DNA of 64,000 bases, from positions 416,001-480,000 of the forward strand of contig CAWKHF010000001.1 in assembly GCA_963849325.1 (NCBI GenBank). The letters are read 5' to 3'. The notes beneath the pieces were generated by a model, which searched no databases, was not told the DNA's origin, and worked only from the letters and a program-made list of their open reading frames with translations. Below, in pieces: positions 28,101-62,621 of this stretch. A program made the translations under genes and the position numbers. The stretch's first letter is position 1; every line of letters starts with the position of its first letter. The stretch comes from an uncultured Planctomycetota bacterium. GTDB lineage: Bacteria > Planctomycetota > Planctomycetia > Gemmatales > Gemmataceae.

Positions 28101-28189
28101 GCCGAGAGCTTCCGCGTGCTCTCGGGCTTCAATGCGGCCACGGCCCGAAGACCGTGGAGAACACGGCTCGACGAGTTCGGCCGGATGCA

Positions 28190-30148
28190 AGCCCCAGGAA
28201 CTTCCTCGGAAGGTGACGCGACGGTGACGTAGCTCCCTGCTGCGATGGGCCTCCGCCGCGCGCACCGTCTCCGCTCCCTTCCGCCCTTCGCCCTTGTCCT
28301 CTCCGCTGTTTCCGTCTCACCTCACTGTCAATGACTGCCAACGCCAACGCGAATCTAGGTCACCGCCGGCATCGGCGGCGCCTCCACCTTCCGCAGCTCG
28401 AAGCCCAGCTCCATCGCACGACGACGCAACTGCTTCTCCAGACGCGCCCGCACCTGCTCGGCGTAGACCGCCTCCGTTTGCTTGACGTAGGCCATGCCGT
28501 AACGCACCAAGTGGTACACGATCCGCGCCAGCTTGTGCGCCGTCGCCGTGATCGCCTTGGGCGCACCCAGACGCGAACGCTGACGACGCAGATAGGCTCC
28601 CAAATAGCTCTTGCTCCGCATCAGACTCCAGGCCGCCAAACACAACGTCCGCGCCGCACGCCCCTTGCCCTTACGCGTCGCGCTGGACTTGACCTTACCC
28701 CCGGTCTTGTGCCAGTTGGGGCACAGCCCCAGCCAGCAGGTGAACTGCTTGACCGTCGGCCATTTCGTGAAGTCCCAACCCAGCTCACTGACCAACGTCA
28801 ACGCATGCACCTCGTCAATGCCTTCGATCGCCGTCAGGTCTACGCCCGTGGCCAAGTACAACGCCTGGCGCACGTCAAAGCGTGGGTCGTGCGGCTTGCG
28901 GCCACGCATGCGGGGCTTGGGCGGCAGTGGGGGCAACGCGGTCTGCCGACGCATGCTCCGCAGGTGGGCGTCGATGGCTTCGTCCAGCTCACCGATCACC
29001 TCCTGATACTTCTCCCACAAGGTCAGGCAACAGCGCAGCTCGGTTATATGCTCGGGGCGATAGCGGCCATCCAACGCCTGGGCGATGTCCGCAACGCTGT
29101 GCCGGCAGCGGCGGTCGCGCAGCCTGGCCAGTTGCTGCGGGTCGCGTTGGCCGGCGAGGATGGCCCGGATGATCTTTAGCCCCGTTACGCCGGTGACGTC
29201 GCCCAGCACGCCGGTCAGCTTGAGGTTCATCAGTTGCAGCGCCTTCTGCATCCTCTGGATGTGCTGGCCGGACAGGCGGACCAGGTTCGTGCGTTGGCGG
29301 ACGTAGTCACGCAGGGTCTGGGTGGCCTCGTCGGGCTGGAAGATGGCCGGCAACAGGCCGTGCTTGTGCAGGCGTTGAATCCACTGGCAGTCACGCTTGT
29401 CGGTCTTGGGCCGGCCCTTGATCTGGCGGGCAAACTGCGGTGCGGTCATCACCACCACGAAGCCGGCTTCCAGCAGAGTCAAAAACAGGACGTGGGCGTA
29501 GACGCCGGTGGCCTCCACGGCCACGGTGGTGACGCCGCATTGGCGTAGCCAGGCGACCAATTGCCGCAGCCCGGCGGTATGAGCGGGAACGCGCGGACGG
29601 CGTTGCTGTCGTCGGGGGTGGATTCGACGCAGGCCCAGTGGCTGACGTCGCCAGCGTCGATGCCGGCGGCGTGAGCATGCTGCACCGGCATCGAGACCAG
29701 CTTGGCGCACTCCTGGGCGTCACGTCGGGTCTTTTCAGCGTGGCGGGCGGCGCGGCGTAGTTCGTTGGCGGTCGCGGCCACCGATGGCGTTTGCGGTTTA
29801 CGGGCGTCGCGTGGTGGGGTCTTGCAGTCGGACACGGGAGCCTCCACAATAGGGGGATTGGGGAACCAGGGTGTCCGGTGGGGGAGTCGGCACGGGCACC
29901 AGCCGTCCCAACGGGATCGACCGCGACGGCGTTGAAGGCCGTAGGCGGTCGTCACCAAACGAGTGGGCCGAAAATCGCTCCCCGGTCCAGTCGAACCAGC
30001 GGGCGGAGCGCAAAGCCTCTCAGCACCAGAAGCATGTCGGACATCGACACCGGACACCGGAGGTAGGATAAGCGAGTCTCGCCCCAAGTTCCTGGCATTG
30101 TGGTGCAGGGGAACCCTGCGAGGATGCGAACCAGGCGCAGGGCAGGCC
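28190..30148 (-). mobile_element. IS110-family insertion sequence inserted inside a CRISPR spacer
   Basis: Removing ~28190-30144 rejoins a 41-bp spacer. About 300 bp of non-coding sequence lies upstream of the transposase. Confidence 0.85.
28355..29835 (-). CDS. IS110 transposase (DEDD recombinase), frameshift near 29585
   Basis: AAGIDAG, VEATGVY, KTDKRDCQW, WLGLCP...TGGK and AITATAHKLAR motifs; GGAGG RBS before GTG at 29835. Confidence 0.9.
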
Positions 30149-33100: not shown

Positions 33101-36100
33101 AAGCAGAGCTTCAATGCGGCCACGGCCCGAAGACCGTGGAGAACTTGCCCTCAGAGGACGCCGTTCCGGACAGTGATGAGGAGCTTCAATGCGGCCACGG
33201 CCCGAAGACCGTGGAGAACCAAATCACGTTCGGCCGGAGCCGTTCAGTGAACGGCGCTTCAATGCGGCCACGGCCCGAAGACCGTGGAGAACCCGAAGAA
33301 ATCCGGCAACGATGCCGCTGGCGTGACGCTGCTTCAATGCGGCCACGGCCCGAAGACCGTGGAGAACCCTGCGCGACTCATGGCGAGGGCCGCACTCTCC
33401 CCATAGGCGCTTCAATGCGGCCACGGCCCGAAGACCGTGGAGAACCGCATCTCGGCCCCCTCGCGTGAGCTGCGTCACCGACTTTGCTTCAATGCGGCCA
33501 CGGCCCGAAGACCGTGGAGAACCGGGCAATCCTGCTGTGATGAACGACGGCAGAGACGCTTCAATGCGGCCACGGCCCGAAGACCGTGGAGAACTTCGAG
33601 CGGCGCCGATGTTGGCGAGGTCGTTGTTCTGGCTTCAATGCGGCCACGGCCCGAAGACCGTGGAGAACCCCCGCATCGGGCCTTGCTGTGGCCCGTATGG
33701 CAGGGAGCTTCAATGCGGCCACGGCCCGAAGACCGTGGAGAACTCGCCCACCGGCAGGTAGCCCAGAGGCGGTAGGTGAGGCTTCAATGCGGCCACGGCC
33801 CGAAGACCGTGGAGAACATCGAAGCTATGAATGATTCATTGAAAGATGCTCTGCTTCAATGCGGCCACGGCCCGAAGACCGTGGAGAACGACTGGTACTA
33901 TCAGGACACAGACAGCCTGATAGTGAGTGCTTCAATGCGGCCACGGCCCGAAGACCGTGGAGAACCCGCGACCTATGGCAAAGTGGAACTGGAAGATCTG
34001 TGCTTCAATGCGGCCACGGCCCGAAGACCGTGGAGAACACAGGATGCCTTCCTCCGATGTCATCGCCGGCCCTCCCCGCTTCAATGCGGCCACGGCCCGA
34101 AGACCGTGGAGAACCTGTCGATACTCCCAGCATTTCGATCATACCGCGACGGCGCTTCAATGCGGCCACGGCCCGAAGACCGTGGAGAACAACCCGTTCA
34201 TTCGCCGGACTGTGGACAACGAGAACGGCTTCAATGCGGCCACGGCCCGAAGACCGTGGAGAACTCGCGTTGTCCTGGGCGTCACCCTGACACCGGATCA
34301 AGCTTCAATGCGGCCACGGCCCGAAGACCGTGGAGAACCGCTTCCGCAATCTGTATTGGCGTCGTCCCAAGACTAGCTTCAATGCGGCCACGGCCCGAAG
34401 ACCGTGGAGAACCCGGCCCGCCGTGCGCGGCACGCTCTGGACGGCCTAGCTTCAATGCGGCCACGGCCCGAAGACCGTGGAGAACAAGAAGTTCTCGGAC
34501 GAGATGATTGAGGAGCTGAAGGCTTCAATGCGGCCACGGCCCGAAGACCGTGGAGAACCGAGAATCCAAGCGAGATCAGGGTCGTGGCCATCGGGCTTCA
34601 ATGCGGCCACGGCCCGAAGACCGTGGAGAACTTGGAAACTCCCAATTCGTGTTGTCGCTGCTGTCGAGCTTCAATGCGGCCACGGCCCGAAGACCGTGGA
34701 GAACTTGAAGACAGCCACGACGTATGGGAAATGCTTGGCGAGCTTCAATGCGGCCACGGCCCGAAGACCGTGGAGAACAGTTCCTTGACGCACGCGCACG
34801 TCCACGTCCCGCCGGCGCTTCAATGCGGCCACGGCCCGAAGACCGTGGAGAACGCGAAAGTATCTGCGGCAGTGCTTTCGGCTGGGAATGCTTCAATGCG
34901 GCCACGGCCCGAAGACCGTGGAGAACTGCTTACGTCGCGTTGAGTTAAGTTTCCCTTTTTTCGGCTTCAATGCGGCCACGGCCCGAAGACCGTGGAGAAC
35001 ATCGTGACGTAGAGAGGTAATCGAGCCGGATACAGGCTTCAATGCGGCCACGGCCCGAAGACCGTGGAGAACTCGGCATCGGTGCCGACGCCAAGACCGA
35101 CCTCGAAGCTTCAATGCGGCCACGGCCCGAAGACCGTGGAGAACCATCTATCACATGGCCGTTCATAACCCGGCCACAGAGGCTTCAATGCGGCCACGGC
35201 CCGAAGACCGTGGAGAACTGATGAAACCAGTATGGAGTAGGGACTGGCGAGACCATGCTTCAATGCGGCCACGGCCCGAAGACCGTGGAGAACCAGTCCT
35301 TATGTCGCCCTATCAGCCAACACATAATTTGCTTCAATGCGGCCACGGCCCGAAGACCGTGGAGAACCTCCAATGCAGTGTTGTTTGAGAAAAGAGGCCG
35401 ACAAAGCTTCAATGCGGCCACGGCCCGAAGACCGTGGAGAACGAGAACCTCTGGTGTGGCAGGTATTTTCGATGTTATCGCTTCAATGCGGCCACGGCCC
35501 GAAGACCGTGGAGAACTGGAGATATATGCCGGAGGGGAGCTACCGTCCAAGCTTCAATGCGGCCACGGCCCGAAGCCGTGGAGAACTCAGTGCCAATCTC
35601 GCGGCACTGCCGGCAGTCCCGGAGGCTTCAATGCGGCCACGGCCCGAAGACCGTGGAGAACCAGAGCTAGTACATTCTATTTGCTTAGGAATTACAGCGG
35701 CTTCAATGCGGCCACGGCCCGAAGCCGTGGAGAACGTTCGCTCGGCTTTTCATCTTGCGGAGCAGGAGCGAGCTTCAATGCGGCCACGGCCCGAAGCCGT
35801 GGAGAACCTGGTGGCGGTTGCCGCGGAGGAGGTGTGGTGGCGGCTTCAATGCGGCCACGGCCCGAAGCCGTGGAGAACGTCCGGTAAATCAACATGGGTG
35901 AAGAATTGGCAAGACGCTTCAATGCGGCCACGGCCCGAAGCCGTGGAGAACCTCGGCGTGCCCGACTGTTGTTGCGCGGAAAGGGGGCTTCAATGCGGCC
36001 ACGGCCCGAAGACCGTGGAGAACTTCAAGGTGAAGTTCGATGTTGGGGATTCATTGTAGCTTCAATGCGGCCACGGCCCGAAGCCGTGGAGAACTCCAGA

Positions 36101-40175: not shown

Positions 40176-40450
40176 CGCTCGCGTTGCAAGCGGTGTATTT
40201 CACGCTCGTTAGAGCGTGCTCTGCGAGCAGGCTGAGGAATTGGAGGAACAGAGGAAGCAGAGGAAACAGTTCCTCATTCGTCAACTCCTGCCGGCGACAG
40301 ATGTTCGGCGACGCGAGCGGCTCGCGGGCCAAGCAAACAACGCATCTCCTCAATTGTCAAAGACCAGCGCCACGGAGACCGGGCGAACACGATTGCAGCA
40401 CCTTGGCGTTCGCGGCATCGATGCGAGAAGAACGGCGTGACCGACAGCGA
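40176..40450 (-). promoter_or_regulatory. CRISPR leader
   Basis: Non-coding stretch between csb2 and the first repeat; TTGACA-containing motif at 40350-40376 (minus strand) and GCGAGC direct repeats. Confidence 0.7.
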
Positions 40451-41263
40451 TCATTCGGTTGGGAGGAACAGGCCCAGACCGAAATGAGAGGCGTGGCCCA
40501 GACAAAGCGGCCCCGCCAACTCGCGGTCGAACTCCAGGCGGAACGCCGCCGTCGCTCGATTGGCCCCGTCGTCGCCCGGTTTGCGGCGGCCGCGACGGAA
40601 CTGAAGCGGCCGGAACGAACAGGTGCGGCCTACGTGATCCAAGACAGTATAGGCGGCCGATGCACCGGCCGCCAGGGTGGGTTGACGGCGGAGCCAGCGT
40701 TGGCTTTCTTCGGCAAGGACGCGGGCCGCGAAGTGCGGCCGGCCCGTGAGACCGTGACAGTCGGGCGGGTCTTTCTGACGGCCGCGTTTCTTGGGGCAGC
40801 GCGTGACGACAAACGGCGTGGCCGACTCCCAGACGCGGGCGGGACCAAACAGGCGACAGCGGAAATCCTCCGGCCGGCCCAGCCCCACCAGCAGCACCTG
40901 CAACGGGTCGCCCTCCCCCCAGGGCAGCCGCCGCACGGCTTGGAGGGCCGCCAGCTCGTCGGGGCCGAATCCCTCCGCGGCGTAGACGGTTACGTGATCG
41001 AGGCGGCTGGCGTCGTTCTCGGCCGTGGGCAGATAGTAGGCGTGGTCGTGGGAGTTCAGCGGCCGACCCGTTTCATCCTTTCCGGAAAACACCCGCGAGT
41101 AGAACTGCTGCGGATATCGCTTGGCGGCGTTTCCGTATCTGCGACGGTGCAGAAAGCGCTGAAAGCGATGCATGAGCACATGCCGAAACGCCTCGGCCAC
41201 TGGGAGGGTTTCGGTCACAAGTGGTAGCACCGGGCCGTCGAGCAGGAAGCGGGCGATCGTCAT
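40451..41263 (-). CDS. csb2: Csb2 (type I-G Cas5/Cas6 fusion), C-terminal Cas6-like portion only
   Basis: SGKD...HDHAYYLP, VWESATPF and GPLCLGHASHFGLGLF Gly-rich loop. About 270 aa from ATG 41263 (frame open to 41455); no N-terminal Cas5-like half seen. Confidence 0.85.
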   Translation of the reverse strand: MTIARFLLDGPVLPLVTETLPVAEAFRHVLMHRFQRFLHRRRYGNAAKRYPQQFYSRVFSGKDETGRPLNSHDHAYYLPTAENDASRLDHVTVYAAEGFGPDELAALQAVRRLPWGEGDPLQVLLVGLGRPEDFRCRLFGPARVWESATPFVVTRCPKKRGRQKDPPDCHGLTGRPHFAARVLAEESQRWLRRQPTLAAGASAAYTVLDHVGRTCSFRPLQFRRGRRKPGDDGANRATAAFRLEFDRELAGPLCLGHASHFGLGLFLPTE

Positions 41264-41433
41264 TAAGGCAGTGCCAGGTTTCTCGGTAACCACGACACGA
41301 AATGGGCGGTCATAGGGAACCGCTTCAAGTGTCGCGGAATCCAACGTCGGAACCACAATCGGTGTGATCCGATTGTCCGAGGCCTCTGTGTCAGGCCGCC
41401 GGCGACGCGAACCCCTTCTTGGCCTGCCCATGC

Positions 41434-43766
41434 CTAGCTCCTTGTTCGTTTCCACCCTGTGCTGACATCATAAAGTTGAACGGCGAGGCTCATTGGGACA
41501 TGAACGATCTGTGATTCTTGCGACGCCTGGTCAATAGAGTAACCATATCGCTTGGGAACCTCAACGATCCGTTGCCCTAATTCAGGCTGCAGTTTCCGAA
41601 GCCGTCCCCGGCGCTGTCCAGGATCGGATAGCGCGTTCGCTTCCCGGAACTGCCGCCAAACGTCGGCGTCGGCAATGTCAACTTCGACGAAGTGCGCAAC
41701 CGCATCCTGACGTTCGTCGATGAGTCGAACCGCTTTGTCTTGGTCCTTTGCATCGATTCCTTCCCCACGGAGAGAGGCAAACTCCCACTGCTGAACCGCC
41801 TCCATGACCTTGTGAAAGGTGTCCGACCCGGTTCGGCTGGCGACGAGCCTGAAATATTCACCCACGCTCTCTTGGAGTCTTGGCTCGGGTACGGGCGTCC
41901 CTTGACCGGCAGCTCTTTCCAGAACCTCTCGCGGCACCCATCTCCTTGTTGCCATAGATCAGGTTGCCGGTATCTCCTTCCACTCTGACCAGGAAAACCT
42001 GGCCGCGGCGTCCCGTGCCGTGCCGGTTACACCGTCCGGCGGCCTGAACCACGGCGTCTAGGGGGGCCAGCGCTCGGAAAACCACGTCGAAGGACAGATC
42101 GACACCTGCCTCCACCACCTGAGTGGCGATGAGAAGATGCGGCCTACCGTGGCACTTTACGATCTGTTGTAAGATCTTCTTCCGGTCCAGCGGTCGCAAG
42201 TTTGTGGAAAGGTGAAAGACTGGATTATCGGAAACGCCGGGCAGCACCTTACCAAGGCGCATAGGTCGAGGGCTTCCTGGATGGTGTTCACGATGACAAG
42301 GCAAGACGGCTGCTTCGGGTCCGTTACCACATTGCGAATCCGATCAGCCAAGGCGACGAGGCTCACTGGCTGCCCCGTCTGCACATGGAGGTCGTAACGG
42401 TCGAATGCAACCGCCAGCGTTTCAGCCAAGGTCGGGCGCAGCTCGCTCACATCGGTTGCCTCGAAGATGGCCGGTTGGGTAGCCGTTACCAGCAGTACAT
42501 CGGTTCCCCATTGATCGCTCAGTGCTCGCAGCGCGGTGTTGATAAGCCGCCAGAACTTGGCGGGGATGGCTTGCACCTCGTCAAGGATTAAGATGGAACC
42601 AGCCAGGCGGGCAAATCGCCTCGTGTCGGCGACAGTTCCGTGGAACAGGGCGTTTACGACCTGGACGAACGTAGTGCAGATGATGTCGGCTCGCCATCCT
42701 TCGACCCAACTCCGAGCAAGCGACTGCTCGCCGCTCCGCGCCAGCTCGCCCGGCTCCGCGACGTGGTGGTGAACTGCCAGAGTGCTTTCGTCTGGCTCGT
42801 CATCTCCCCATATGCGGCGCAGCACAGACGCGTTCTGGTCGATGATGCTTGTAAACGGCAGCGCGTAGACGATCGGGCACGGGGGAAGGCCAGCGCCAAT
42901 GCGCGCCTCGCGACGCCGGAGCGCCCACCCCAGGGCCGCGAGGGTCTTCCCCGCCCCAGTGGGAACCGTCAAGCTCCATAGGTGGCCCGAGTCGAGCTGG
43001 TCGGAGGTTTGCCCGATCCACGGCGGCCTGATACACGTGTTCTCGTGCCTGAACGACACGCGGGTCGGCCGCTGGACCGAAGTTGGCGGCGGTTCGGAAC
43101 CGCTCCAAGTGGGCAATCGTGAATCGAAGGGGTGCTTTGAAGAGATCAGGTGCGAACCCTGTCGCGGAATCTCGATCTGCCTCAATCAACAGGCCGAACC
43201 AACGCAGCGCGTCCTGGAACCTCTTCATGGCGGCCAACCCGGATGGCCCTTGCCGAAAAGCGGTAGACGAGCTGCACCCGCAGCTTGGCCCATCGCAAGT
43301 CGAGGTCCGGCTTCTGGACCGGCTCGCCAAGACTTGCGGCAAGCCAGGTCGCCGCGCCTTCAAGATCCAGGGCTTGAAGTTGCTTCGCCCACAGGCCACG
43401 CGCCACATCGTCGGATGGGGGCAGTGATTCCAGCGCGTTCTTCAACCCCGTGTGGTGGTGCGCCACCATCAGATACGCCAAGACCGTTTGGTCTATGGTC
43501 AGGCCATGAGCGGCGACCTTGGGTAACAGGTGGTTAAGCAGCCAGACGGCCCCAAGGTGGGCGTGCTGCTTCAACCGGAGATCGCTGACAGGTTGACCCT
43601 TCAGGTAGTGCTGGAAGTGTTCTGTCCCTTTTGCCACGTCATGGAACAGGCCGGCGATCCGACCCAACCAGCCACAGGCGGTTAGCCGATTCGCCACGTC
43701 TTGAAGGTGGCCGGTCAGGGGCTTGCCTGGGTGCGATTCACAGAGCCGAAAAGCAGGTGCCATCAT
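41434..43766 (-). CDS. cas3: Cas3 HD nuclease-helicase (several frameshifts)
   Basis: SHP..HL, FHDVAK and HH in the HD domain; PTGAGKT, DEVQ, TAT, ATQVVEAGVD and QAAGRCNRHG. Confidence 0.92.
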
Positions 43767-47383: not shown

Positions 47384-47544
47384 CGGGTAGACCCTCTTGA
47401 TAGCCCGCGATTGTCGAGTCAGCCGCCACCCGCTTTACGGTCACCACGTCCTTGGCACTCACCTCCGTCGGTTGGCTGAGTTCTCACTTGGTCCATGCGC
47501 TTCGCGCACGAACGAACGATCTACAGCCGATCCTCGGTGAGGTG

Positions 47545-47550
47545 TATAAT
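47545..47550 (+). promoter_or_regulatory. Candidate -10 box for mini-array 1 / TA operon
   Basis: Perfect TATAAT in GC-rich DNA, flanked by CTACAGCCG direct repeats at 47521 and 47554. Confidence 0.5.
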
Positions 47551-47598: not shown

Positions 47599-47710
47599 CT
47601 TCTCCACGGTCTTCGGGCCGTGGCCGCTTTGAAGCAGGCGTCTGCCAGTGGGACAGTTGACCGACCATAGTGAGTTCTCCACGGCCTTCGGGCCGTGGCC
47701 GCATTGACAG
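47599..47710 (+). CRISPR. Mini-array 1: two degenerate repeats and one 38-bp spacer, opposite orientation to the main array
   Basis: Repeats at 47599-47635 and 47674-47710; spacer at 47636-47673. Confidence 0.9.
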
Positions 47711-48742: not shown

Positions 48743-50462
48743 TCACCGCACCGTGAAGCCCGTGTACGCCGGCACCGAGCCGCGCACGTACGCGGCCAGC
48801 ATCCGCGCCTGCACCTCCAGCATCCGCGAATAGCTCATCTTGTAGCCGTACACCGGGTGCGTCACCACCGTCGCCTTCCGCTGCTCGTAGGCCTGGAAGA
48901 ACTTCCGCCGGCCCGAGTCCGTCAGCTGACACGCCTCGCGCCACACCAGGAAATCGTCCGGCGTCAGCATCTCGTTGTTGATCAGCGTCAGCACCACCGA
49001 GTCGGCGATCACCGGGCGGAACTCCTCCATCAGGTCCAGCGCCAGCGACGGCTTGCCGTGGCGGTTGGAGTGGAAGAAGCCCTTGTACGGGTCGAATCCC
49101 ACCGTGCAGACCGCCGCGAAGCAGTCCTTCGTCAGCATCGCGTAGGCGAACGACAAGCAGCGCGTTCACCGGGTCGCGCGGCGGGCGGCGGTTGCGCGTC
49201 GTGAACTCGAAGCCGCGGCCCGGCGGCTGCACCTGCAGGAAGCGGCCGAACTCGCCGAAGTACAGCGCCGCTCCCTGCCCCTCCAGCCCCAACACCGTCT
49301 CCAGCGGACGCGGCACTGTCCAACCGCCGGATCAGGTCCGCCAGACCCCGCGCGGCCGGCTCGTCGCTGCCGCGGTCGCCGTCGCCGCGCAGGCTGCGCA
49401 TCAGCAGCGCCCGCTGGTTGGTGAGCTTGGCCCGCACCACCGCCTTCGACAGCGTCAGGCACTCCGCGGCGTCGGCGAAGCGGCGGAACTGCGCCTCGCG
49501 CAGCCCGACGTTCTTGCGCTCGGCCGGCGCGAACGTGCCGATGAACCGGCCGTAGCCCGTCAGGTAGGCCACCGGGATCTCGTTCGTCACCAGCGTCTCC
49601 AGCGCCTGCGTCGAAACCTGCACGTTGCCGAAGACCACCACCTGCCGGATCGCGTGCATCGGCACCCGCGTCACCTCCTGGCCGTCCTTGCGGACGACCA
49701 GATGCTCGCTGCGCTTGCCGACGTGGCTGCCCGGCTCCTGCACGTACAGCACCGCGCCGTCGTCGGACTGCGGGATCACCCGCGTCAGGCCGGGCGGCGG
49801 CGAGGCCGTTTCCTCGGCGGCCGGCGGCAGGCCGATCTGGTAGAGCGTCTCCTCCGGCAGACAGACCGGGGCCAGCGAGCAGCCGAAACAGCGGTGCCGC
49901 AGCTCCGCCGGCAGCGGGTCCGGCGGGGCGTCCAGGGCAGACAGCCGCCGGCATTCGTCGATGGCCGTGCGCGTCTTCGCCCGCAGCTCGTCGCGTGAAG
50001 CGGACCTCGACGCGCTCGCGCGTGCCGGCGTAGAACTGGAAGCCGCGCTGCACCGGCGCGCCGAACGCTTCTTCCATCAGCAGCGCCTGGCCGCACAGCT
50101 GCACGGCGTCGTTGTCCCAGGTCGTCGGCCGGCCGTCGTCGTCGCGCGGGGCGGAGCCGTGCTTGGTCTCCACCGGGTAGGACACGCCGTCCTTCTCCTC
50201 GATCACGTCGAGGACGCCGCTGATGCCGAGCGTCTCCGACGACAGGTGGACGCCGCGACTGCGGTTTGCATCGCCTTCCTTGCGCGTCTTGTTGGCCAGT
50301 TCCGGCTCATCGACGCGGCGGTGATCGAACAGGCCGGCCTCGACGTGTTCGTTGGTGCGGCATCACGGCATCGACGTACTGGAGGTAGTAGAGGCGCGGG
50401 CAGTAGGTGACCTGGTTCAGTGCGCGCAGGGGGATCATCTGGGCGTCGGTCGTTGCGGTCAT
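48743..50462 (-). CDS. cas1: Cas4-Cas1 fusion (several frameshifts)
   Basis: N-terminal YCPRL, PVETK, QLCGQ and C..CSL..VC (Cas4); C-terminal [18 protein letters not shown] and [12 protein letters not shown] (Cas1). Confidence 0.93.
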
Positions 50463-50490
50463 GATTCACCTCAGAGAGTCCGAGTAAGGG

Positions 50491-52407
50491 TTAATCCACC
50501 ATCCGCAGCTTGCAAGGCGCCGGATCCATAGCCACCAGGAGCGGCCGAGAAAGGTGCGTGAAACTGACCACCGCCTGACCCGGCGCCAGTCCCGGGATGC
50601 GGCTCCACAGCGACTCGTCGATGCCGCTGATGGTATGTCGCAGGTTCATTAACACCTGCGGGTCGGTCAGCTTGTGCAGCACAAAGTTGTTGCACAGCGA
50701 CAAAACCTGACGGGGCAAGTGCGCGGGTAACTGTGTCACGAACACCAGCCCGAGCCAGCGCTTCCGGCCGCGCTTGGCGATGCGGGCCACTTGCTGGAAC
50801 AGCGTGTCCATCCGCTCGATGCGATCCGCACTGAGGAACTCGTGCGCTTCCTCAATGATGAGCAGGACGCGAGGAACCGGCGGGTCCTGCCCCGCGGCCT
50901 TCGCCTTCTCGTAGCGGCGGTAGGCATTTTCTTGGGCTTTCTGAACGCCGCGCATCAGATCGGCGATCGCAAAATTCGCCAGTTCCGTCATGCCGGTGTC
51001 CGAAAGGTCCACCACGGAAACCTGACCCGGTGCGATGAGCTGGTCGTAGTTCAGCGGCGGAGCGCCGCGTTTTTGCAAATGGCGATCAAACACTTTCAAG
51101 CGATTCAGCCGCCAGAGCAGGCTCTTGACCTTGCCCCACGAGGACGCACTGCTCAGTTCCTTTGCCTTGATGTGTTTCTCCAACGCCGCGCGGCCGGCGT
51201 CGGTACGGAGCACGGCGTTGTATGGCTCGAAGCTCGTTTTGCTCACCGTCGCCAGACACTTGCCGACCACGTCGAGCAGCAGCGACAGCGTCAGGCGGGG
51301 CCAGCCGCGCTCGAACTCGTCGATGCGGAGCAGCAGCTGTTCCTGCTTGTCCACTTCTTCCTTCGGCTTGTCCCGTTGTGGGAAAATGCCGAGGTCGCGC
51401 ATTATCGCCTTGGTGATTTCGTAGGCCGGAAGAAACCGCTCAGATTGAGCATCGTTCATCCCCAGCATTTCGATAACCGCGTGCGGAGAAAGCGCGGCAA
51501 ACTGGAGCGAGAACTCGCTGCGGTTTGGATGGCGCGGGTTCGTGGACTCACGACCGACAAGGTGGTACAGCCGCATGGAGTCCGCGGGGATGCCGGCTGG
51601 CGACAGGCCACGCTCCTGCAAGGCGTCCAGCATCGTGCGGTGATCGGCCGGTTCGTGCAAGTGCGTGTATTCGCCCTCGACATCCAGCAGAATGACGGTC
51701 ATCCCCACGGCCTGAGCTTGCTGGATCAAGCCCGCCACCGTCGTCGATTTGCCGCCGCCCGTTGTACCGAGGACCGCGACGTGGCGCGGCAGCACGGCCT
51801 TCTTGTCGGACGGTACGTTGACGATCACCTCGCTCGCCCCAACCACGGAACCCAGCCGGATGTCGCCATCGGTGTGCAGGACTGCGGCTACCTCCGATTG
51901 CGTCAGGGCAACGACGGGGCTATTGGGCAGCGGTCGCAGGCGCGGCGGAACCAGCGAGCCGTTCTTGAGTTCCTCGCCCAGAATCGAGACCGTCGCGCGG
52001 CCGTGGTAGGGCGGCAGATAGACGCCGCCGCGCGCCGTCACGGTGACGAGCAAATGCGAGTCGGCCCGTAGCGTGTCCGGTTCAGCAAAGGGACCGGCGG
52101 TCACGATGCCCAGGTACTTGCGCCCGTCGCAGCTCTTGATGCGCACCAGGGATTGCGACGGCGCCTGTTGGGCGTGATCGCGCGGCAGCAGGACCGTCAC
52201 GCTGCCGTCTTCGCTGCCGGGCAGGTCGAACATGGTCGCGCCGATGGCGCCTTCCCGATCCGGGTCGGGAGCCAACTCGCCGCCGGCACGGGTTACGTCG
52301 GCTTGGACCTGCTGGAGCAGATCCTCCGGCGGACGGGCGATGCCCAGGTCTTCCTGGCCGTTGTCGTGTGCCGTCCTAGGCGTTGGTCGCGTTGTGGGTG
52401 CAGGCAT
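50491..52407 (-). CDS. HerA-like FtsK/HerA-superfamily ATPase
   Basis: N-terminal HAS-barrel-like region, GTTGGGKS, DVEGEY, IIEEAHEF and RIAKRGRK..LVFVTQ. Confidence 0.88.
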   Translation of the reverse strand: MPAPTTRPTPRTAHDNGQEDLGIARPPEDLLQQVQADVTRAGGELAPDPDREGAIGATMFDLPGSEDGSVTVLLPRDHAQQAPSQSLVRIKSCDGRKYLGIVTAGPFAEPDTLRADSHLLVTVTARGGVYLPPYHGRATVSILGEELKNGSLVPPRLRPLPNSPVVALTQSEVAAVLHTDGDIRLGSVVGASEVIVNVPSDKKAVLPRHVAVLGTTGGGKSTTVAGLIQQAQAVGMTVILLDVEGEYTHLHEPADHRTMLDALQERGLSPAGIPADSMRLYHLVGRESTNPRHPNRSEFSLQFAALSPHAVIEMLGMNDAQSERFLPAYEITKAIMRDLGIFPQRDKPKEEVDKQEQLLLRIDEFERGWPRLTLSLLLDVVGKCLATVSKTSFEPYNAVLRTDAGRAALEKHIKAKELSSASSWGKVKSLLWRLNRLKVFDRHLQKRGAPPLNYDQLIAPGQVSVVDLSDTGMTELANFAIADLMRGVQKAQENAYRRYEKAKAAGQDPPVPRVLLIIEEAHEFLSADRIERMDTLFQQVARIAKRGRKRWLGLVFVTQLPAHLPRQVLSLCNNFVLHKLTDPQVLMNLRHTISGIDESLWSRIPGLAPGQAVVSFTHLSRPLLVAMDPAPCKLRMVD

Positions 52408-52423
52408 AGCTGTTCTCCTCTCC

Positions 52424-53698
52424 TCAATCGTGACGAGTCGTGCGTTCGCTGAAGTAGCGCCAGGGCGCACCGGCCGCAGCGTAGGCCGTTTCGGTCAGGT
52501 GGTGCAGACTGCCGCCGAACACCGAATCGCAAACGTGATGGGCCAAGTCGATCAGCAGCGGGAAGCCGCGCTCTTCTTGGAACATGCTGTCGGCCAGCAC
52601 GATATGGGCGGCGAAGTGAGCGTGGTCCACATGGGCGTAGAAGAGCTGCGCTGGAGCCAGGATCGAGGCGCGGTACAGGCCAACCACCACTTGCGACGCG
52701 ACACGCTCGATGAAGCGTGGTATCCATTCCGGCGGGGACAGCCGCTCGCCGTCCCAGAATAAGTCCCCGGAGGATTCCATCGTGAATCGGCGTTGTTGGA
52801 ACCAGCCTTCCAGACGCGGAGCCAAGTTGCCGAGGATGGCGTAATGCAGCGGAGGCAGCGCCTGGCCAATGGTCAGCGCCAGCAGTTCACGGGGCTCACT
52901 GGCCACGAAGACGAATTTGCCGTAACCCTCGATCAGTTCGCGCATCATCCCGGTCGCGGCGACCATCAATTCCAGGATGTCGGCGCCAGTCAGCAATTCG
53001 TAAGTGATCGGATTGCCGTGGCCCATCCGCCAAACCGCCCTCGATTGGCGGAGGAGAATGGCCCGTTCGGCGTAATCCATGACAGCCTTCCTCGCCAATT
53101 CGCCGAGTTGGTCGCTCGGCGTTCCGTGGTTGAGGGCGGCTCGTTGGTCGCGGCGTCGGAGCAGCTCTAATACCTCATTAAGGTCCGCGGGGCCGCGTTG
53201 CCGCAGGTCGCGGCGGAAGAGTCGCTGCTGCCATGTGCCTTGATCGCCAGCGTAGGATACCAGCGAAACGCCGACCTGGTAGATCGTCAGAGGCAGCGTA
53301 GCATGTACCTGAACCGTCCCGTCACACGCTTCCACACCGCCGTTAAATAACAGGCCGCGATGAATGAGGGCGAGAATGTCCATGTTCGCGGTGAAGACGC
53401 CGCAGCCCGGTGCCGAAGCTGGGTCGATAAGCTTTGGGAAAACTTCGCTGCGAATGCACCGTTGGTACTCGTCCTCCTGGGCGATGGCCTCACGCACTTC
53501 GCGCTCGATACGCGGATACTCCTGCGCCAGGTCTCCTCCCAGCCGCCATGTGTTCACATCGAGAACCCGTTGCAACTCCTCACCGAAGCTCGCTCGAAAC
53601 TCGGCGGCGGTTGCCGGTTCCGAAGGCAGGCGCGTCGGCGACCGTGCCGCGGCCGACACGGGGGATGCTGCATCGTCTCGGGATGTGGTGGTTGCCAT
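52424..53698 (-). CDS. NurA-like nuclease
   Basis: ACDGT, ER, HGN (in place of the usual second DG) and GFPLLIDLAH (NurA-like GYP..L..AH); immediately upstream of herA. Confidence 0.65.
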   Translation of the reverse strand: MATTTSRDDAASPVSAAARSPTRLPSEPATAAEFRASFGEELQRVLDVNTWRLGGDLAQEYPRIEREVREAIAQEDEYQRCIRSEVFPKLIDPASAPGCGVFTANMDILALIHRGLLFNGGVEACDGTVQVHATLPLTIYQVGVSLVSYAGDQGTWQQRLFRRDLRQRGPADLNEVLELLRRRDQRAALNHGTPSDQLGELARKAVMDYAERAILLRQSRAVWRMGHGNPITYELLTGADILELMVAATGMMRELIEGYGKFVFVASEPRELLALTIGQALPPLHYAILGNLAPRLEGWFQQRRFTMESSGDLFWDGERLSPPEWIPRFIERVASQVVVGLYRASILAPAQLFYAHVDHAHFAAHIVLADSMFQEERGFPLLIDLAHHVCDSVFGGSLHHLTETAYAAAGAPWRYFSERTTRHD

Positions 53699-53834
53699 CG
53701 TTCGTTCTCCCACGCGCTTTGCCGGCACCCTCGCGCCTGACTATACTCTCCTGGATTAAAGTGGTCGCGCCCGTCCCTTGTCCGTGGCCCAGTTCTTTGA
53801 CAATTGAACCGCATCGCCTTGCCACCTCGACGAG

Positions 53835-53946
53835 GTTCTCCACGTTCTTATGAACGTGGCCGCATTGAAGATCCCTCACTACTTCCCGACATGCGCGACA
53901 AAGTTCGACATTCTCCACGGTCTCATGGCTGTGGCCGCATTGAAGT
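53835..53946 (+). CRISPR. Mini-array 2: two diverged repeats and one 38-bp spacer
   Basis: Repeats at 53835-53871 and 53910-53946 keep TTCTCCACG...GTGGCCGCATTGAAG; spacer at 53872-53909. Confidence 0.85.
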
Positions 53947-53984
53947 GTAAGCAATCCCGCAAGCTCGCCGTGGCAAGCCAACGC

Positions 53985-54719
53985 TCAGGAGCGCAGTCGC
54001 TGGAGCAACGGATCTTCCCGGACGGGCGGTAAGAGGAGACGGCTATAGTCCTTAGCCTGCTCCTGCGGCAGACCGAAATCGGCTTGCAACACTTCCGCAA
54101 GTCGGATTCTTCCTTCCACACCCGAAATCGACCCGGCTCGCGCCCATACGTCGGCGGCAGGCGCCAGCAGTTCGTAGGCGACCTGATCGGCTTCCTCTTC
54201 GGCCAGCGTGATGGTCGCGTGAAGCACTTCCCGGCGCGGGCCACGCCGCATCAAATGCAGATGAAAACCGAGGGAAATGCTTTTCAAGAGCGCATGAAGA
54301 CACTCCTCTGGCGTCGGCGGGCGCTCCCCGTCCAGGACTTCCACGATTCGTTTCCCCAAGTAGCGGCACGCCCGCCGCCGAGGATGCCAGTAATGTCGCA
54401 GAAAATGAGCCAACTCGTGTGCCAGTGAGAAACGCTGGTCGTCATCGCTGTCGGTTCCGTCGAGAAAGATCAGTCCATGACCGAAATGGGCCGCCAGGCA
54501 AGCCCGCAACGGACGATCCGCTTCGTCGCAACGACAGGCGATCCCGTTCCGGCACAACCAGTCACGGACACTATCAAGCCGTAAATGCGGCAGCAAGACG
54601 ATGGATACCGGCAGCGCCCGGACTATGGGCCGGCGTAATTCACGAGGGAAGGATTCGTCCAAGCCCGCAGCCGCCCAGAACTCACGGATCAATTCCGCGA
54701 TCCACAGCGGCACTCTCAT
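53985..54719 (-). CDS. ImmA/IrrE-family Zn metallopeptidase
   Basis: QRFSLAHELAH (HExxH) and EEEADQVAYELLAP. Confidence 0.88.
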   Translation of the reverse strand: MRVPLWIAELIREFWAAAGLDESFPRELRRPIVRALPVSIVLLPHLRLDSVRDWLCRNGIACRCDEADRPLRACLAAHFGHGLIFLDGTDSDDDQRFSLAHELAHFLRHYWHPRRRACRYLGKRIVEVLDGERPPTPEECLHALLKSISLGFHLHLMRRGPRREVLHATITLAEEEADQVAYELLAPAADVWARAGSISGVEGRIRLAEVLQADFGLPQEQAKDYSRLLLPPVREDPLLQRLRS

Positions 54720-55099
54720 GACTTCGCTCCTTGCGGCGGAGTGTCTTCCGTCGTATTGTCTCGCGCCGCTAACAGGAATCCTTTCTCGCTGTTTTGGCCG
54801 CCGGCGCCAATCCGAAGCCGCAACAGGCTGTGACCCCGCCTGGCAACCTCGGCCAAGACCTCAGCATCGAGCGAGAAGCGCTGCGCGATCTTTTCGACAT
54901 CTTGCCAGAACAGAGGGGCCTGCGCTCGGGGCATCCGGCACAGGCGCAGATGGGTGAGGATTCCCTCGGAACAACCGAGCCGGATGGCCAATCCGGCATC
55001 CTCAAGCTGTTCGCTTCGGGCATACTCCGCCAGCGCGCTGGCGAAAAAATCGGGAGCATCGGCGACACGCAGGGCCAGGTGTTCCAGGTACGGATTCAT
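54716..55099 (-). CDS. Small hypothetical protein, possible HTH repressor or anti-sigma
   Basis: LAIRLGCSEGILTHLRLC HTH-like segment and C-terminal LLAARD; 4-bp overlaps with both neighbours. Confidence 0.55.
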   Translation of the reverse strand: MNPYLEHLALRVADAPDFFASALAEYARSEQLEDAGLAIRLGCSEGILTHLRLCRMPRAQAPLFWQDVEKIAQRFSLDAEVLAEVARRGHSLLRLRIGAGGQNSEKGFLLAARDNTTEDTPPQGAKS

Positions 55100-55731
55100 G
55101 CTTTTCTCCCGGCTCGCTCCAGCATCTTCTTTAACCGATCCTTGTTTCGCTTCACCTGCCGGAATTGCTCTTTCGCAGGCAGGTGCAACAAACCGTAGAG
55201 TTCGGCGAAGATTTTGGTCCGGCGTTCCTTCCGCAAAATCAAATCCAGCGCGCGGGAGTCGGTTTCGGACAAACCTTGGCAGACGGAATTTGAGATGGAG
55301 TTCATCGCGCTCTCGTCTTCCTCAGCCACTCGCATCGGGAGTGACGGATCGTCATGGCGTCCCAGATACTTCCCGGCCTCCTGCGAAAGTTCGACACTTT
55401 TCCACGAAACCCGGCCTTTGTTGTGTCTCCGTTCTTTATCGAGAAGGTTGCGCAAGTCTCCGCGGGCTGACATGCGCAGGTACACTTCCAGGGTCTGCCG
55501 TTCCGGAGAGTACGACCGCGGATTACGAATCAAAGCCAGCAGGGCATCCTCCGCAGCCTCGATGCGGACATCCGGAGGCACGCTCGCGTCGGTTTTGGCC
55601 AACCAGGCGACGAGCGGTTCCAGGTAGGCGTCAGCCAGATCATTCGGGGCAGTTGGATCATCAGCCAGGAGGCGCTGATGAATTTCAAGCGCGTTCGGTT
55701 GCCTGGGTGTTAAGGCGGTAGGACGGGCCAT
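55096..55731 (-). CDS. Sigma-70/ECF-like factor
   Basis: AAEDALL...Y..ER.TLEVYL...DLRN region 2-like; LSETDSRALDL...VKRNKDRLKK region 4-like. Confidence 0.65.
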   Translation of the reverse strand: MARPTALTPRQPNALEIHQRLLADDPTAPNDLADAYLEPLVAWLAKTDASVPPDVRIEAAEDALLALIRNPRSYSPERQTLEVYLRMSARGDLRNLLDKERRHNKGRVSWKSVELSQEAGKYLGRHDDPSLPMRVAEEDESAMNSISNSVCQGLSETDSRALDLILRKERRTKIFAELYGLLHLPAKEQFRQVKRNKDRLKKMLERAGRKA

Positions 55732-59667: not shown

Positions 59668-60138
59668 ATGAACGCCGACGCCAAGCAGCTGTCACTCGCC
59701 TTGACCGCCCCATTCCCCGCCGAGGCGGTCCACTTCAAACCGCTATCGGTCAAGGGCAACCGCGCCCTCGCCGCCGCCTACCTCGACGCTCGCGCCGTGA
59801 TGCAGCGCCTCGATAACGTTTTCGGCGTGGGCGGCTGGAAAGACTCGTACCAGCTGGTCAACGGCGGGTCCGTGGTCTGCACGCTCTCGGTCAAGGTCGA
59901 TGGCGAGTGGATCGACAAGACGGATGTAGGCTCCCCCAGCGAGCAACCCGATGAAGGCGACCAATTGAAAGCCGCTTTCAGCGATTCGTTGAAGCGGGCC
60001 GCGATCAAGCTGGGGATCGGCCGCTATCTGTACCGTTTGCCGCGTCAGTGGGTGGACTACGATCCGCAGACGCGACAGTTCATCAAGCCGCCGCAGCTGC
60101 CCGCGTGGGCGCTGCCCTCGGCGAAGCAATCAGCCTGA
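59668..60138 (+). CDS. Rad52/Rad22-family ssDNA annealing protein
   Basis: AYLDARAVMQRLDNVFG..GW, K.DVG and KAAFSDSLKRAA..LGIGRYLY. Confidence 0.88.
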   Translation: MNADAKQLSLALTAPFPAEAVHFKPLSVKGNRALAAAYLDARAVMQRLDNVFGVGGWKDSYQLVNGGSVVCTLSVKVDGEWIDKTDVGSPSEQPDEGDQLKAAFSDSLKRAAIKLGIGRYLYRLPRQWVDYDPQTRQFIKPPQLPAWALPSAKQSA

Positions 60139-60145
60139 GATGGCG

Positions 60146-60235
60146 GGGGCGGTAGCTCAGTGGCGGAGCATCGGGGCATGACGCCAGCATGGAGGCGCTT
60201 ACCGATGGTCGCGGGTTCGATTCCCGCCCGCCCCG
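60146..60235 (+). tRNA. tRNA-like RNA with abnormal, enlarged anticodon arm (identity undetermined)
   Basis: Acceptor GGGGCGG/CCGCCCC, D-arm GCTC/GAGC, T-arm GCGGG-TTCGATT-CCCGC; about 27 nt between TCGG and CCGA. Confidence 0.7.
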
Positions 60236-60271
60236 ATTCACTTGAACCCTTTTCCCTTCGGAGTAACGACC

Positions 60272-60643
60272 ATGACGAAGATGTTCCTCGACCCGCTGCC
60301 TCCGGCCGTCGTTGATTTTGAATGGCTCCGCCGGCCGTTCGGCCCGACCCTCGACCCGCAACGCGATCTCCCCGGCGTGCTGCGCATCGGCCGGCGCCTG
60401 TACTCCGTCTGGGGCATCGGATGGAACGAGCCGGGCGGACCCCGCGCGGTCGGGTTCGAGCTGTTGGATCAGCAGACAAACCGGACCTACAACATCTTTC
60501 TTGAGTGGTGGGGACCGGAATGCGATTGCGGGGAGGGCCGCTTTCACTTTCGAGCCGGCGGTTGCCGTCACATTGTCAACGTCCGGGCCGCGTTCGACGC
60601 CCTAGGATGGAAGGTCGTCCTCCCCCGGAGACCGGCAGCATAA
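60272..60643 (+). CDS. Second SWIM-like zinc-finger protein
   Basis: Y.I...ECDC...GCRH. Confidence 0.6.
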   Translation: MTKMFLDPLPPAVVDFEWLRRPFGPTLDPQRDLPGVLRIGRRLYSVWGIGWNEPGGPRAVGFELLDQQTNRTYNIFLEWWGPECDCGEGRFHFRAGGCRHIVNVRAAFDALGWKVVLPRRPAA

Positions 60644-60671
60644 ACGACACAAACGATAAGGAGAGCGGGAA

Positions 60672-61703
60672 ATGTCCGACGTACCGACGACGACGAACGC
60701 CTTGACATTGACAACGTTGTCACCCTCGAACACGGCGCCGCCGGCCGGATCGGCAGGCGGCGCCGAAGCCCTCGACGTGGCCGGCTTCCTCGGCCATCTC
60801 CAACACGAACGGCGATTGTCGGGTAACACCCTCGCCGCCTACGGTCTCGCCCTTCGCCAGTTCGCCGAGTGGGCGCAGTCCGGCGGCCTGGCTTGCCCCC
60901 TCCGGCCCGAATCCCGCGAGCTGGGCGGATTCCTCGAACACCTCCGCGATCAAGGACTATCCGCATCCAGTATCAGGCAAAAGCTCGCCGCCGTGAGGAC
61001 GTGCTATCGCTACCTGCATGTCCAGGGCCGCATATCGACGAAGACGCTGGGAGTTGTGCTCGGCACCGAGGGTCCGGCCGCGTGGCAGCGTCTACCGGCG
61101 GTCCTCGGCGCGGAGCAAGCGGCCCGATTGGTGCAAGCTCCGCTGCCCTCGGATCGCTACCACTTGCGCGACCGCGGAATTTTGGAGTTCCTGTACGCCT
61201 CCGGCTGTCGCGTGAGCGAGTTGTGCGATCTGACTTTGACGGACCTGCGCTTGTCGGATCGCTATGCCGAAGTGCTCGGCAAGGGCAACAAGCCTCGCCT
61301 CGTCCTGCTGGGCCGGCCGGCCGTGGCGGCCCTCGACGCCTACCTCGGCGAGTTGCGGCCTCGGATGGTGCGGTTGGCGCCGGAATCGCCCTGGCTATTC
61401 GTGAGTCGCGCCGGGCGGAGGTTGACGTGCGAAATGGTATGGACGCTCGTGAAGCGCTACGCCCGGCGGATGGGCCTGGAAGGCGTCAGCCCGCACGTCT
61501 TTCGGCACAGCTGCGCAACGGCGTTGATGAATGGTGGTGCAGGTCTGCAAACTGTCAGCAACTTGCTCGGGCACGCCAGCATCAACGCGACGCAGCGATA
61601 CCTTCACGTCGATGAGGAACGGAAGCGGGAGCTGCACCGCCTCTATCATCCCCTCGGCACGACGCCCTCCGAAACGGCAACGGTCCTTCCCGACGCCGCT
61701 TGA
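60672..61703 (+). CDS. XerD-like tyrosine recombinase
   Basis: NTLAAY, SGCRVSE, GKGNKPR, HVFRH and LGHASINATQRY. Confidence 0.9.
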   Translation: MSDVPTTTNALTLTTLSPSNTAPPAGSAGGAEALDVAGFLGHLQHERRLSGNTLAAYGLALRQFAEWAQSGGLACPLRPESRELGGFLEHLRDQGLSASSIRQKLAAVRTCYRYLHVQGRISTKTLGVVLGTEGPAAWQRLPAVLGAEQAARLVQAPLPSDRYHLRDRGILEFLYASGCRVSELCDLTLTDLRLSDRYAEVLGKGNKPRLVLLGRPAVAALDAYLGELRPRMVRLAPESPWLFVSRAGRRLTCEMVWTLVKRYARRMGLEGVSPHVFRHSCATALMNGGAGLQTVSNLLGHASINATQRYLHVDEERKRELHRLYHPLGTTPSETATVLPDAA

Positions 61704-61731
61704 CTGCGGCCCGTTATCAAGGAAAATCCCC

Positions 61732-62621
61732 ATGCAGCAAGCCCTCGACGGGTTCATTCGCCACATGGAAACGGAGAAACAGGCTTCGGACTGCACGGTT
61801 CGAGCGTATCGCGCAGACCTGCGCAAGCCGTAAACTTCTTCCGCTCCCAGCTGGGGACGCCTACGCCACGTCCCGAAGATCTGACGGCCGGCCTCCTGAG
61901 CGATTACGTCGCTTGGCTTGGCCGGCAAGGCTACGCCGCGAGCACAATACGGCGGCGCATGGCGGCCGTGCGATCATGGATTCGCTTCCTGGTTCAGCGA
62001 GGCTTGCGGTCAGACGATCCGTCCGCAAGCGTGTGCGGCCCGCGTCCGAATCGACGGCTCCCGCATTTCCTGACTGTCGCCGAGGTGGTGCGTCTGCTCG
62101 ACGCGCCGCCGGCCGACGCTCTTATCGGCGTGCGTGATCGCGCCGTACTGGCCGTGTTGTATTCCACCGGCGTCCGAGGCGGCGAGTTGACGGGCTTGAA
62201 CGTCGAGGACGTAAACGTAGACGCCGGCACGGCCAAGATACGGGGCAAGGGTCGGATTGAACGTCTGGGCATCCTGGGGCCGCCGGCCGTGGCCGCACTG
62301 TCGCGTTGGCTGAGCCGGCGCGACGAGTTGGCAGGTTCGTCGGAACCAGCCCTCTTTGTAGCCTGTACGGGTTCGCGCCTGGACTGTCGCTCAGTGAACC
62401 GACTGATCAAAAAACACGCGACCTGTATCGGTGTCGATAAACGCACTTCGCCGATCTCGTTTCGGCACAGCTTCGCCACGCACCTACTTAACGGCGGGTG
62501 TGATTTGCGTGGAATCCAAGCCATGCTTGGGCACTCTTGCCTTTCAACGACCCAGCGATACGCGCACGTTTCGACGCGGCGGCTTCGGAACGCCTACGAT
62601 CAATCGCACCCTCGCGCCTGA
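61732..62621 (+). CDS. XerC-like tyrosine recombinase (frameshift near 61830)
   Basis: TVRAYRADL, TGVRGGE, GKGRIER, ISFRHSFATH, LGHSCLSTTQRY and AYDQSHPRA. Confidence 0.85.

Follow-up and report, generated by a model that had tools for sequence, protein, structure and literature searches.

A lineage-specific CRISPR mini-array with an apparently self-derived, promoter-like spacer in the control region of a NurA-like/HerA operon of a soil planctomycete

A genuine two-repeat CRISPR unit, here termed mini-array 2, lies within the 64,000-nt stretch of planctomycete DNA analysed in this study (the window), where it occupies the control region of a minus-strand operon encoding a NurA-like protein and a HerA-type ATPase. 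The unit is specific to its lineage, and its spacer is a copy of the operon's own conserved promoter-like element rather than foreign DNA. The reading preferred here, at a probability of roughly one half, is that of a lineage-specific, self-derived mini-array which represents either a scar or a nascent form of the regulatory units known as CreR or crlRNAs, and whose spacer now constitutes the only intact promoter of the operon.

The source is a soil planctomycete genome of 8.16 Mb with 65% G+C, assembled into 14 contigs and 84.7% complete. The features of the CRISPR locus and of mini-array 2 are collected in Table 1. The main array is split by an insertion (~28163-30159) which carries an IS110-family transposase gene (28355-29710, minus strand). 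Its 36-nt consensus repeat starts, in the RNA sense, with GTTCTCCACGG at the 5' end and terminates in CCGCATTGAAG at the 3' end; between 35552 and 38856, a 35-nt repeat variant with one T fewer in the 5' stem arm is mixed with 36-nt repeats. The locus between 40451 and 50465 is composite and combines type I-B effector genes and an ORF corresponding to the C-terminal half of Csb2 with a type I-G-like cas4/cas1 fusion 8 kb away. A few kb past the locus (59668-62621), a Rad52-family gene and two tyrosine-recombinase genes hint at the border of a mobile element. Mini-array 1 is preceded by an extended -10 element, TGTATAAT (~47543-47550), about 50 nt upstream. Both ends of its spacer are similar to the sequence which immediately follows the second repeat, as if duplicated with an internal deletion, and this second repeat ends in TTGACA, not TTGAAG. 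In two small arrays of other genomes (L079 in G241 and L087 in G094:C132), the terminal repeat is followed by a sequence almost identical to the terminal spacer.

Table 1. Features of the CRISPR locus, of mini-array 2 and of the adjoining operon, by position in the window
Feature	Position	Strand	Remarks
Main CRISPR array	19193-40175	-	~260 repeats; spacers of 34-44 nt
Main-array leader	40176-40376	-	includes the motif at 40350-40376
ORF matching only the Csb2 C-terminal half	40451-41455	-	profile positions 219-448 of 449; adjoins the leader
Type I-B genes cas3 (4 ORFs), cas5, cas7, cas8b (2 ORFs)	right of the Csb2 ORF	-
Mini-array 1	47599-47709	+	near-consensus repeats, 39-nt spacer; between cas8b and vapBC
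vapBC	right of mini-array 1	+
cas4/cas1 fusion gene	48746-50465	-	split into 5 pieces over 3 frames; orthologue in G009 intact
HerA-type ATPase gene	50491-52470	-	Pfam DUF87/HerA_C; PADLOC HerA
NurA-like gene	52424-53698	-	424 aa; ATG at 53698
Remnant of the original promoter-proximal sequence (ribosome site and mutated second box)	53699-53729	-	directly upstream of the NurA-like ATG
Inserted segment	53730-53756		no other genomic copy; -10-like hexamers TATACT on the plus and TATAGT on the minus strand
Truncated leader-like stretch around the core	53757-53834	+	aligned leader piece 53757-53812, then ~22 nt to R1
Core leader motif	53781-53807	+	matches the main leader at 24/27; ends 27 nt before R1
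Repeat R1	53835-53870	+	5/36 off consensus; 8-bp stem, all Watson-Crick
Spacer	53871-53909	+	39 nt; promoter-like element when read on the minus strand
Repeat R2	53910-53945	+	5/36 off consensus; stem kept with two G.U pairs
Native intergenic sequence, R2 to M78 stop codon	53946-53984		matches L023 (score 20, 0/300 shuffles)
M78 (IrrE/CapP-like) peptidase gene	53985-54719	-	upstream gene of the NurA-like/HerA operon
127-aa ORF	between the M78 gene and the sigma-like ORF	-
Weakly sigma-like ORF	55096-55731	-

Mini-array 2 shows the arrangement of a repeat-spacer-repeat unit. Both repeats agree with the consensus at 31 of 36 positions, share the same orientation and are separated by 39 nt, a spacer length which is common in the main array (46 of 258 spacers). 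R1, with the hairpin CCACGTTC-TTAT-GAACGTGG, departs from the consensus at positions 11, 16, 17, 19, and 20, and R2 at positions 1, 15, 16, 17, and 21, while ATTGAAG and the entire 3' 15 nt are identical to the consensus in both. In the R1 stem, the pair G11-C20 has been replaced by U-A through changes on both sides and the U12.G19 wobble has become U-A; in R2, G10-C21 has become a G.U pair. All eight stem pairs are thereby retained in each repeat. One common hairpin is predicted, with folding energies of -14.5 kcal/mol for the consensus, -12.9 kcal/mol for R1, and -12.1 kcal/mol for R2. The antisense sequence of R1 also holds its hairpin (-12.7 kcal/mol), whereas that of R2 fails to do so (-6.8 kcal/mol). 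Since the R2 stem folds in the plus sense only, the plus strand is argued to be the meaningful one. The initial annotation of this region had described a fully paired R1 hairpin with ATTGAAG retained, and sequence and folding agree on this point.

Hairpin retention alone is moderately unlikely by chance, but not rare. All pairs would survive five random substitutions with P = 0.11 per repeat, or 0.26 per repeat if three changes in each followed a shared ancestor; the corresponding chance is 0.02 if the three changes all strike the stem. A shared ancestor is conceivable because the derived loop letters A16 and T17 are common to R1 and R2, as would result if one variant repeat had given rise to both and each had then acquired three changes of its own. 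All 10 changes are confined to position 1 or positions 11-21 (0.002 per repeat, for a region chosen post hoc). Folding and covariation had been suggested as a check on the hairpin, and both favor it: in addition to the fold predicted for the two repeats, the family-wide stem covaries above shuffled sets. In a set of 19 variants of the family's repeat, which come from 13 genomes and include mini-arrays as well as arrays, 94.7% of the stem cells are paired (0/500 shuffles as high), three pairs show change on both sides (27/500 shuffles), and the covariation score amounts to 0.257 (1/500 shuffles).

The columns that vary in R1 and R2 are the columns that vary among the working arrays of the repeat family. 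The TCAT-type loop of R2 is the norm in arrays of other Gemmataceae genera, and part of the apparent change in R1 and R2 may therefore reflect ancestry rather than compensation in place. Template switching in imperfect palindromes can also yield paired changes without selection. R2 matches a repeat of genome G104 at 33 of 36 positions (counted by eye); for R1, no variant within three mismatches was found in 251 other Gemmataceae genomes. BLAST of the source genome revealed no second array. The R1 variant is accordingly not the consensus of another array, an origin which had been named as a refutation of the proposal.

Upstream of R1, the 27-nt leader motif differs at three positions from its counterpart in the main leader on the opposite strand, a match for which 100 shuffles give a chance expectation of 0.00. 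Both copies are oriented alike relative to their own repeats, with TTGACA on the array-sense strand. The motif in mini-array 2 contains the leader core of the Gemmataceae repeat family, CCGTGGC..TCTTTGACAATTGA in array sense. A degenerate pattern of this core, searched in 121 family genomes, adjoins arrays of the same family in G009, G137, and G065, either exactly or with two mismatches, and the reversed pattern used as a control produced no matches. Three-mismatch matches in G124, G098, and G058, without an array nearby, were taken as chance. In the main array and in G009, G137, and G065, the core precedes the first repeat by 171-174 nt, and the leaders of ~230 nt align throughout. The gap measures 27 nt in mini-array 2 (53808-53834), as opposed to 174 nt in the main leader (40176-40349). 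About 55 columns align around the core and ~150 nt are absent, with ambiguous similarity close to the junction; a full leader of ~230 nt including the conserved repeat-proximal block is not present. The earlier account of this region thus proved accurate with regard to the 24/27 match on the array-sense strand, the spacing of ~30 versus ~175 bp and the loss of most of the leader, and the core is additionally conserved beside three other arrays.

The leader piece matches each of the four leaders at 34-36 of 55 positions, as compared to 39-50 of 55 for the leaders among themselves. Equidistant from all four, it is no recent copy of the main leader of the source genome. A scan for sigma-70 promoters (-35 and -10 boxes at 16-18 nt) detected no acceptable -10 box after TTGACA in either copy, and the designation of the leader motif as a promoter is therefore tentative. 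Another sigma-70 candidate on the plus strand, TTGCCG-17-TATACT, is located at 53719-53747. The 26 nt directly before R1 could correspond to the repeat-proximal leader block or to a third decayed promoter copy; the alignments for the two are equally weak.

Read on the minus strand, the spacer comprises the boxes TGTCGAAC and GGGAAGTA, separated by 15 nt, a usual box spacing, and followed by a ribosome-site region. We infer a promoter role for this two-box element from its conservation and position. GTCGAAC occurs within 70 nt upstream of the approximate NurA-like start in 18 of 29 related loci, where it is followed by 14-16 nt, a GGGAA-type box, a ribosome site, and the ATG (spacing judged by eye). 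In G003, a genome of the same genus, the 48 nt between the M78 stop codon and the ATG of the 424-aa gene are collinear with the spacer and contain no repeat, and the spacer-homologous stretch is likewise present without repeats in L009-L011. Local alignments of the spacer to the native elements of L021 and L023 score 22.5 and 19, respectively (0/300 shuffles).

A closer counterpart was recovered in two of the four public soil DNA runs examined (X3 and X4, from two studies), whose contigs join position 53713 to position 53947 with 39 nt of plain promoter where the source genome has 233 nt. The flanks of these contigs mismatch the source genome at 1/49 and 5/63 positions in X3 and at 1/37 and 7/183 positions in X4. 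The spacer agrees with the native sequence of this close relative at 28 of 31 aligned positions; the three differences all fall between the boxes, both boxes are identical, and a 1-nt indel lies nearer the ribosome site. More distant relatives are ~80% identical to the spacer. Within the source genome, a second copy (53690-53726) consists of the native start, the ribosome site and the second box only (score 21.5, 0/300 shuffles). The promoter-proximal part is consequently doubled, with a degraded copy beside the gene and an intact copy inside mini-array 2.

Mini-array 2 itself is absent from every related locus examined and is known from a single genome. A repeat at the NurA-like promoter was found in 0 of 29 related loci; an 11-mer within one mismatch of the handle is found in five of them, with no repeat sequence before any (inspected by eye). 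Repeats are also absent from all nine metagenome pattern matches, three of which are true homologues, and a single pattern match in a viral collection was dismissed as chance. The initial annotation had regarded the unit as selected for expression and processing. This part of the claim is not supported, as a unit absent from all related loci examined offers no conservation to show selection.

The 424-aa product of the first gene downstream is probably NurA-like. It has no Pfam match, its Atlas neighbors are clusters in which 21-64% of the members carry PF09376 (score 0.95-0.97), and its best fold match is NurA (2ygk_A, E 5e-4), at a low TM of 0.30/0.38 and for a model of mediocre pLDDT (62.9). 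Among 252 family genomes, 86 encode the protein, mostly in one copy. The gene order of G009 is that of the window, namely sigma-like, M78, NurA-like, HerA, and cas4/cas1, and in G003 (C71) vapBC and the NurA-like gene are ~4 kb apart on one contig, again in the order of the window. These gene orders suggest that the adaptation side of these CRISPR loci includes the NurA-like/HerA pair.

No PAM-flanked seed target of the spacer was found above chance in the window or the genome. The seed scan of the window gave two matches at 10 of 12 seed positions, none of them near, where a rough estimate predicts ~5, and the genome scan with a TT flank gave 2 and 10 matches as opposed to averages of 12.0 and 8.75 for shuffled spacers. 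The best other BLAST match of the spacer in its own genome is 14 nt exact. The proximal remnant agrees with 13 of the first 22 spacer positions, 1 and 8 being among those that differ (by eye), and the spacer's own DNA is flanked by a repeat end, not TT. Neither seed pairing to a PAM-flanked promoter site nor positional recurrence, both of them marks of a regulatory crRNA-like unit, was thus observed. In the main array, only one of 258 spacers (33523-33558) matches its own genome nearly in full: it corresponds to C6:235119-235154 at 35 of 36 positions with a CTT 5' flank and represents a self-target.

Other units of the repeat family were also noted. A mini-array upstream of a vapBC homologue in another genus (G078:C233, L062, reverse strand 577-685) has strongly changed, fully paired stems, and 17 of the first 19 nt of its spacer match a GTT-flanked site ~75 nt away, before a divergent gene. 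On the basis of these features, it is a good candidate for a CreR-type unit. The cas locus of G009 (C327, L093) harbors two solitary repeat-like units (652-686, minus strand; 7463-7500, plus strand) in which the handle is kept and the stems are different but paired. The native promoter site appears, like the G078 target, to be preceded by GTT, although this flank depends on the protospacer register and hence on the 1-nt indel. With so few informative sites, the PAM is a guess from three flanks (CTT, GTT, and GTT).

The type I-B/I-G gene set of the source genome is incomplete. Cas7b and Cas5b are whole, Cas8b is divided into two ORFs, Cas3b into four, and Cas4/Cas1 into five pieces. The intact 572-aa Cas4/Cas1 of G009 aligns to these five pieces in three frames at 88-94% identity, which implies at least four frame changes, while the HerA, NurA-like, and M78 proteins of G009 each align in one frame. 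As the breaks are concentrated in the cas genes and the neighbors are intact, the cas frameshifts are probably real; they could partly be assembly errors, given the completeness and contig number of the assembly. With hairpins, handle, and leader core preserved, a crRNA-like RNA may still be produced from the unit by transcription and cleavage. The absence of a PAM-flanked target and the several broken cas genes argue that it is at present an orphan guide rather than a working one. Of the fixed guide that had been proposed, what remains is a real, expressible-looking unit with its handle, stem, and leader core; the proposal is supported in part only, in view of the missing target, the self-derived spacer, and the broken cas genes.

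According to the preferred reading, a leader-repeat unit would have landed just outside the operon promoter, and a promoter copy would then have been captured between two repeats. The capture may have occurred by ordinary Cas1-Cas2 acquisition from adjacent self DNA, for which the apparent GTT would have served as flank, or else a spacer-repeat unit may have been duplicated. Decay of the gene-proximal promoter copy would have followed, as expected of a former self-target undergoing escape, so that the spacer copy would now supply the operon's only intact promoter. The observed order of elements is the layout expected from a leader-repeat landing outside the promoter followed by a promoter copy between repeats. 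The parts of mini-array 2 are 11-15% diverged from their presumed sources, compared to ~2-8% for the flanks of the close relative. Together with the equidistance of the leader piece, this divergence indicates that the unit was not copied recently from the main array as it now stands and may come from an unsampled lineage. The non-random, pair-preserving repeat changes hint at a constraint beyond that expected of a mere scar.

In off-site ("neo-CRISPR") Cas1-Cas2 integration, a foreign spacer comes to lie between two copies of a native pseudo-repeat. This origin was rejected as the sole event since mini-array 2, with true repeats around native sequence, presents the opposite arrangement. A single crossover of an array spacer with the promoter was likewise rejected, as it would leave one repeat per junction.

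Several other explanations of the locus have to be weighed. Viral mini-arrays that target close relatives are known, and mini-array 2 might analogously encode a crRNA directed at related strains, or at incoming related DNA, through the operon's native promoter, a site which in relatives is homologous over its full length and apparently GTT-flanked. This is nevertheless improbable: the indel shifts the seed end relative to the closest relative, which differs at three of 31 further positions, distant relatives diverge by about a fifth, cas3 is fragmented, and the operon, found in about a third of the family genomes, is a widespread and mostly single-copy chromosomal set rather than a mobile element. 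Less improbable, but still doubtful, is the import of the 233-nt segment by homologous recombination from an unsampled Gemmataceae lineage in which it is perhaps conserved and functional. Such an origin would account for the divergence of the repeats and leader core, which exceeds that of the flanks from their counterparts in the array-less close relative, for the equal distance of the leader piece to four leaders, and for the A16/T17 loop, which is unlike the main array and common in arrays of other genera. It is countered by the failure to find a donor, as the R1 variant is missing from all 251 family genomes and repeats from all nine metagenome matches, and by the spacer itself, which is nearest to the native sequence of the source genome's own near relative. 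An assembly artefact or chimera is highly implausible. The unit is known from a single assembly with frameshifts nearby, and its mini-array form was seen in none of the four soil runs, yet an assembler would not create diverged repeats, a leader core, and a promoter copy, and the flanks are collinear with relatives.

A working crRNA-like regulator of the CreR/crlRNA ("CRISPR-supervised") kind is unlikely, if less so than the explanations above. After transcription from the leader core and cleavage by the C-terminal Csb2 protein, its RNA would guide Cascade to the NurA-like/HerA control region and maintain repression until Cascade is lost or inhibited. The unit does occupy, within a cas locus, the promoter region of a nuclease/ATPase operon that includes HerA, its handle and hairpin are kept, its guide derives from the operon promoter, and crRNA-like units exist elsewhere in the repeat family, such as the G078 mini-array and the solitary G009 units with paired stems. 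It also resembles the SRU which type I-C loci carry beside the genes of Sir2-HerA (Nezha) (Shu et al., 2024, 10.1101/2024.12.27.630466). These points are outweighed by the lack of a seed-type target, given the 13/22 pairing of the proximal remnant, by the repeat end in place of a TT flank, by the conservation of the unit in none of the 29 related loci, and by the fragmented cas8b and cas3. By published criteria, a unit with neither target nor positional conservation is probably non-functional (Shmakov et al., 2023, 10.1101/2023.03.03.530964).

The comparison with known systems follows the same lines. CreR-type mini-arrays are described as units whose seed-containing spacer part pairs with an adjacent PAM-flanked site and which recur in related loci (Shmakov et al., 2023, 10.1101/2023.03.03.530964; Liu et al., 2023, 10.1101/2023.03.10.532045). 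Measured against that description, mini-array 2 likewise consists of two repeat-like sequences and one spacer outside the main array and inside the CRISPR-cas locus, with diverged repeats that retain handle and hairpin and a spacer related to a nearby promoter. In contrast to these units, its spacer is a full-length paralogue of the promoter, located where the promoter used to be; it has no PAM-flanked target and is found in one genome only, and it keeps a leader piece, which such units are reported usually to lack (10.1101/2023.03.03.530964). For the crlRNA system, repression was measured, and the 16-bp match next to the -35 box has a TTC PAM (Shu et al., 2024, bioRxiv 10.1101/2024.12.27.630466). 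Both cases involve a repeat-derived unit which adjoins the promoter of a HerA-containing operon among cas genes, but mini-array 2 has no PAM-flanked target, and the HerA partner is NurA-like instead of Sir2.

With the ordinary arrays of the source genome (G000), G009, G137, and G065, mini-array 2 shares the repeat family and the orientation of the 27-nt leader core. It deviates from them in the position of the core (27 nt from the first repeat versus 171-174 nt), the ~150 nt of missing leader, and the possession of a single spacer. Similar to self-targeting spacers, its chromosomal spacer apparently stems from DNA beside the CRISPR machinery and the original site is damaged. A literature search found no description of a mini-array whose spacer is the promoter it replaced; the search was not exhaustive, and preprint supplements may list similar cases. 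The origin of regulatory mini-arrays is itself conjectural, and one survey suggests duplication of a terminal array unit followed by exaptation (Shmakov et al., 2023, 10.1101/2023.03.03.530964).

In a bolder version of the preferred reading, which we consider speculative, the captured promoter now works from inside the mini-array and the locus offers a snapshot of the birth of a CRISPR-derived regulator, with transcription of the guide on the plus strand and of the operon on the minus strand converging. If true, leader activity would be coupled to NurA-like/HerA expression without any Cascade target. Regulatory mini-arrays, among them CreR, CreA, and crlRNAs, tune cas genes and even other defense systems. 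A spacer which is demonstrably the promoter of the neighboring operon, an array-less native form in a close relative, and a damaged original site together provide concrete material on how such regulators may originate, and they also serve as a caution that a well-kept mini-array need not be a working guide. Furthermore, the conserved string of sigma-like, M78, NurA-like, HerA, and cas4-cas1 genes in Gemmataceae may link end-resection enzymes to spacer uptake.
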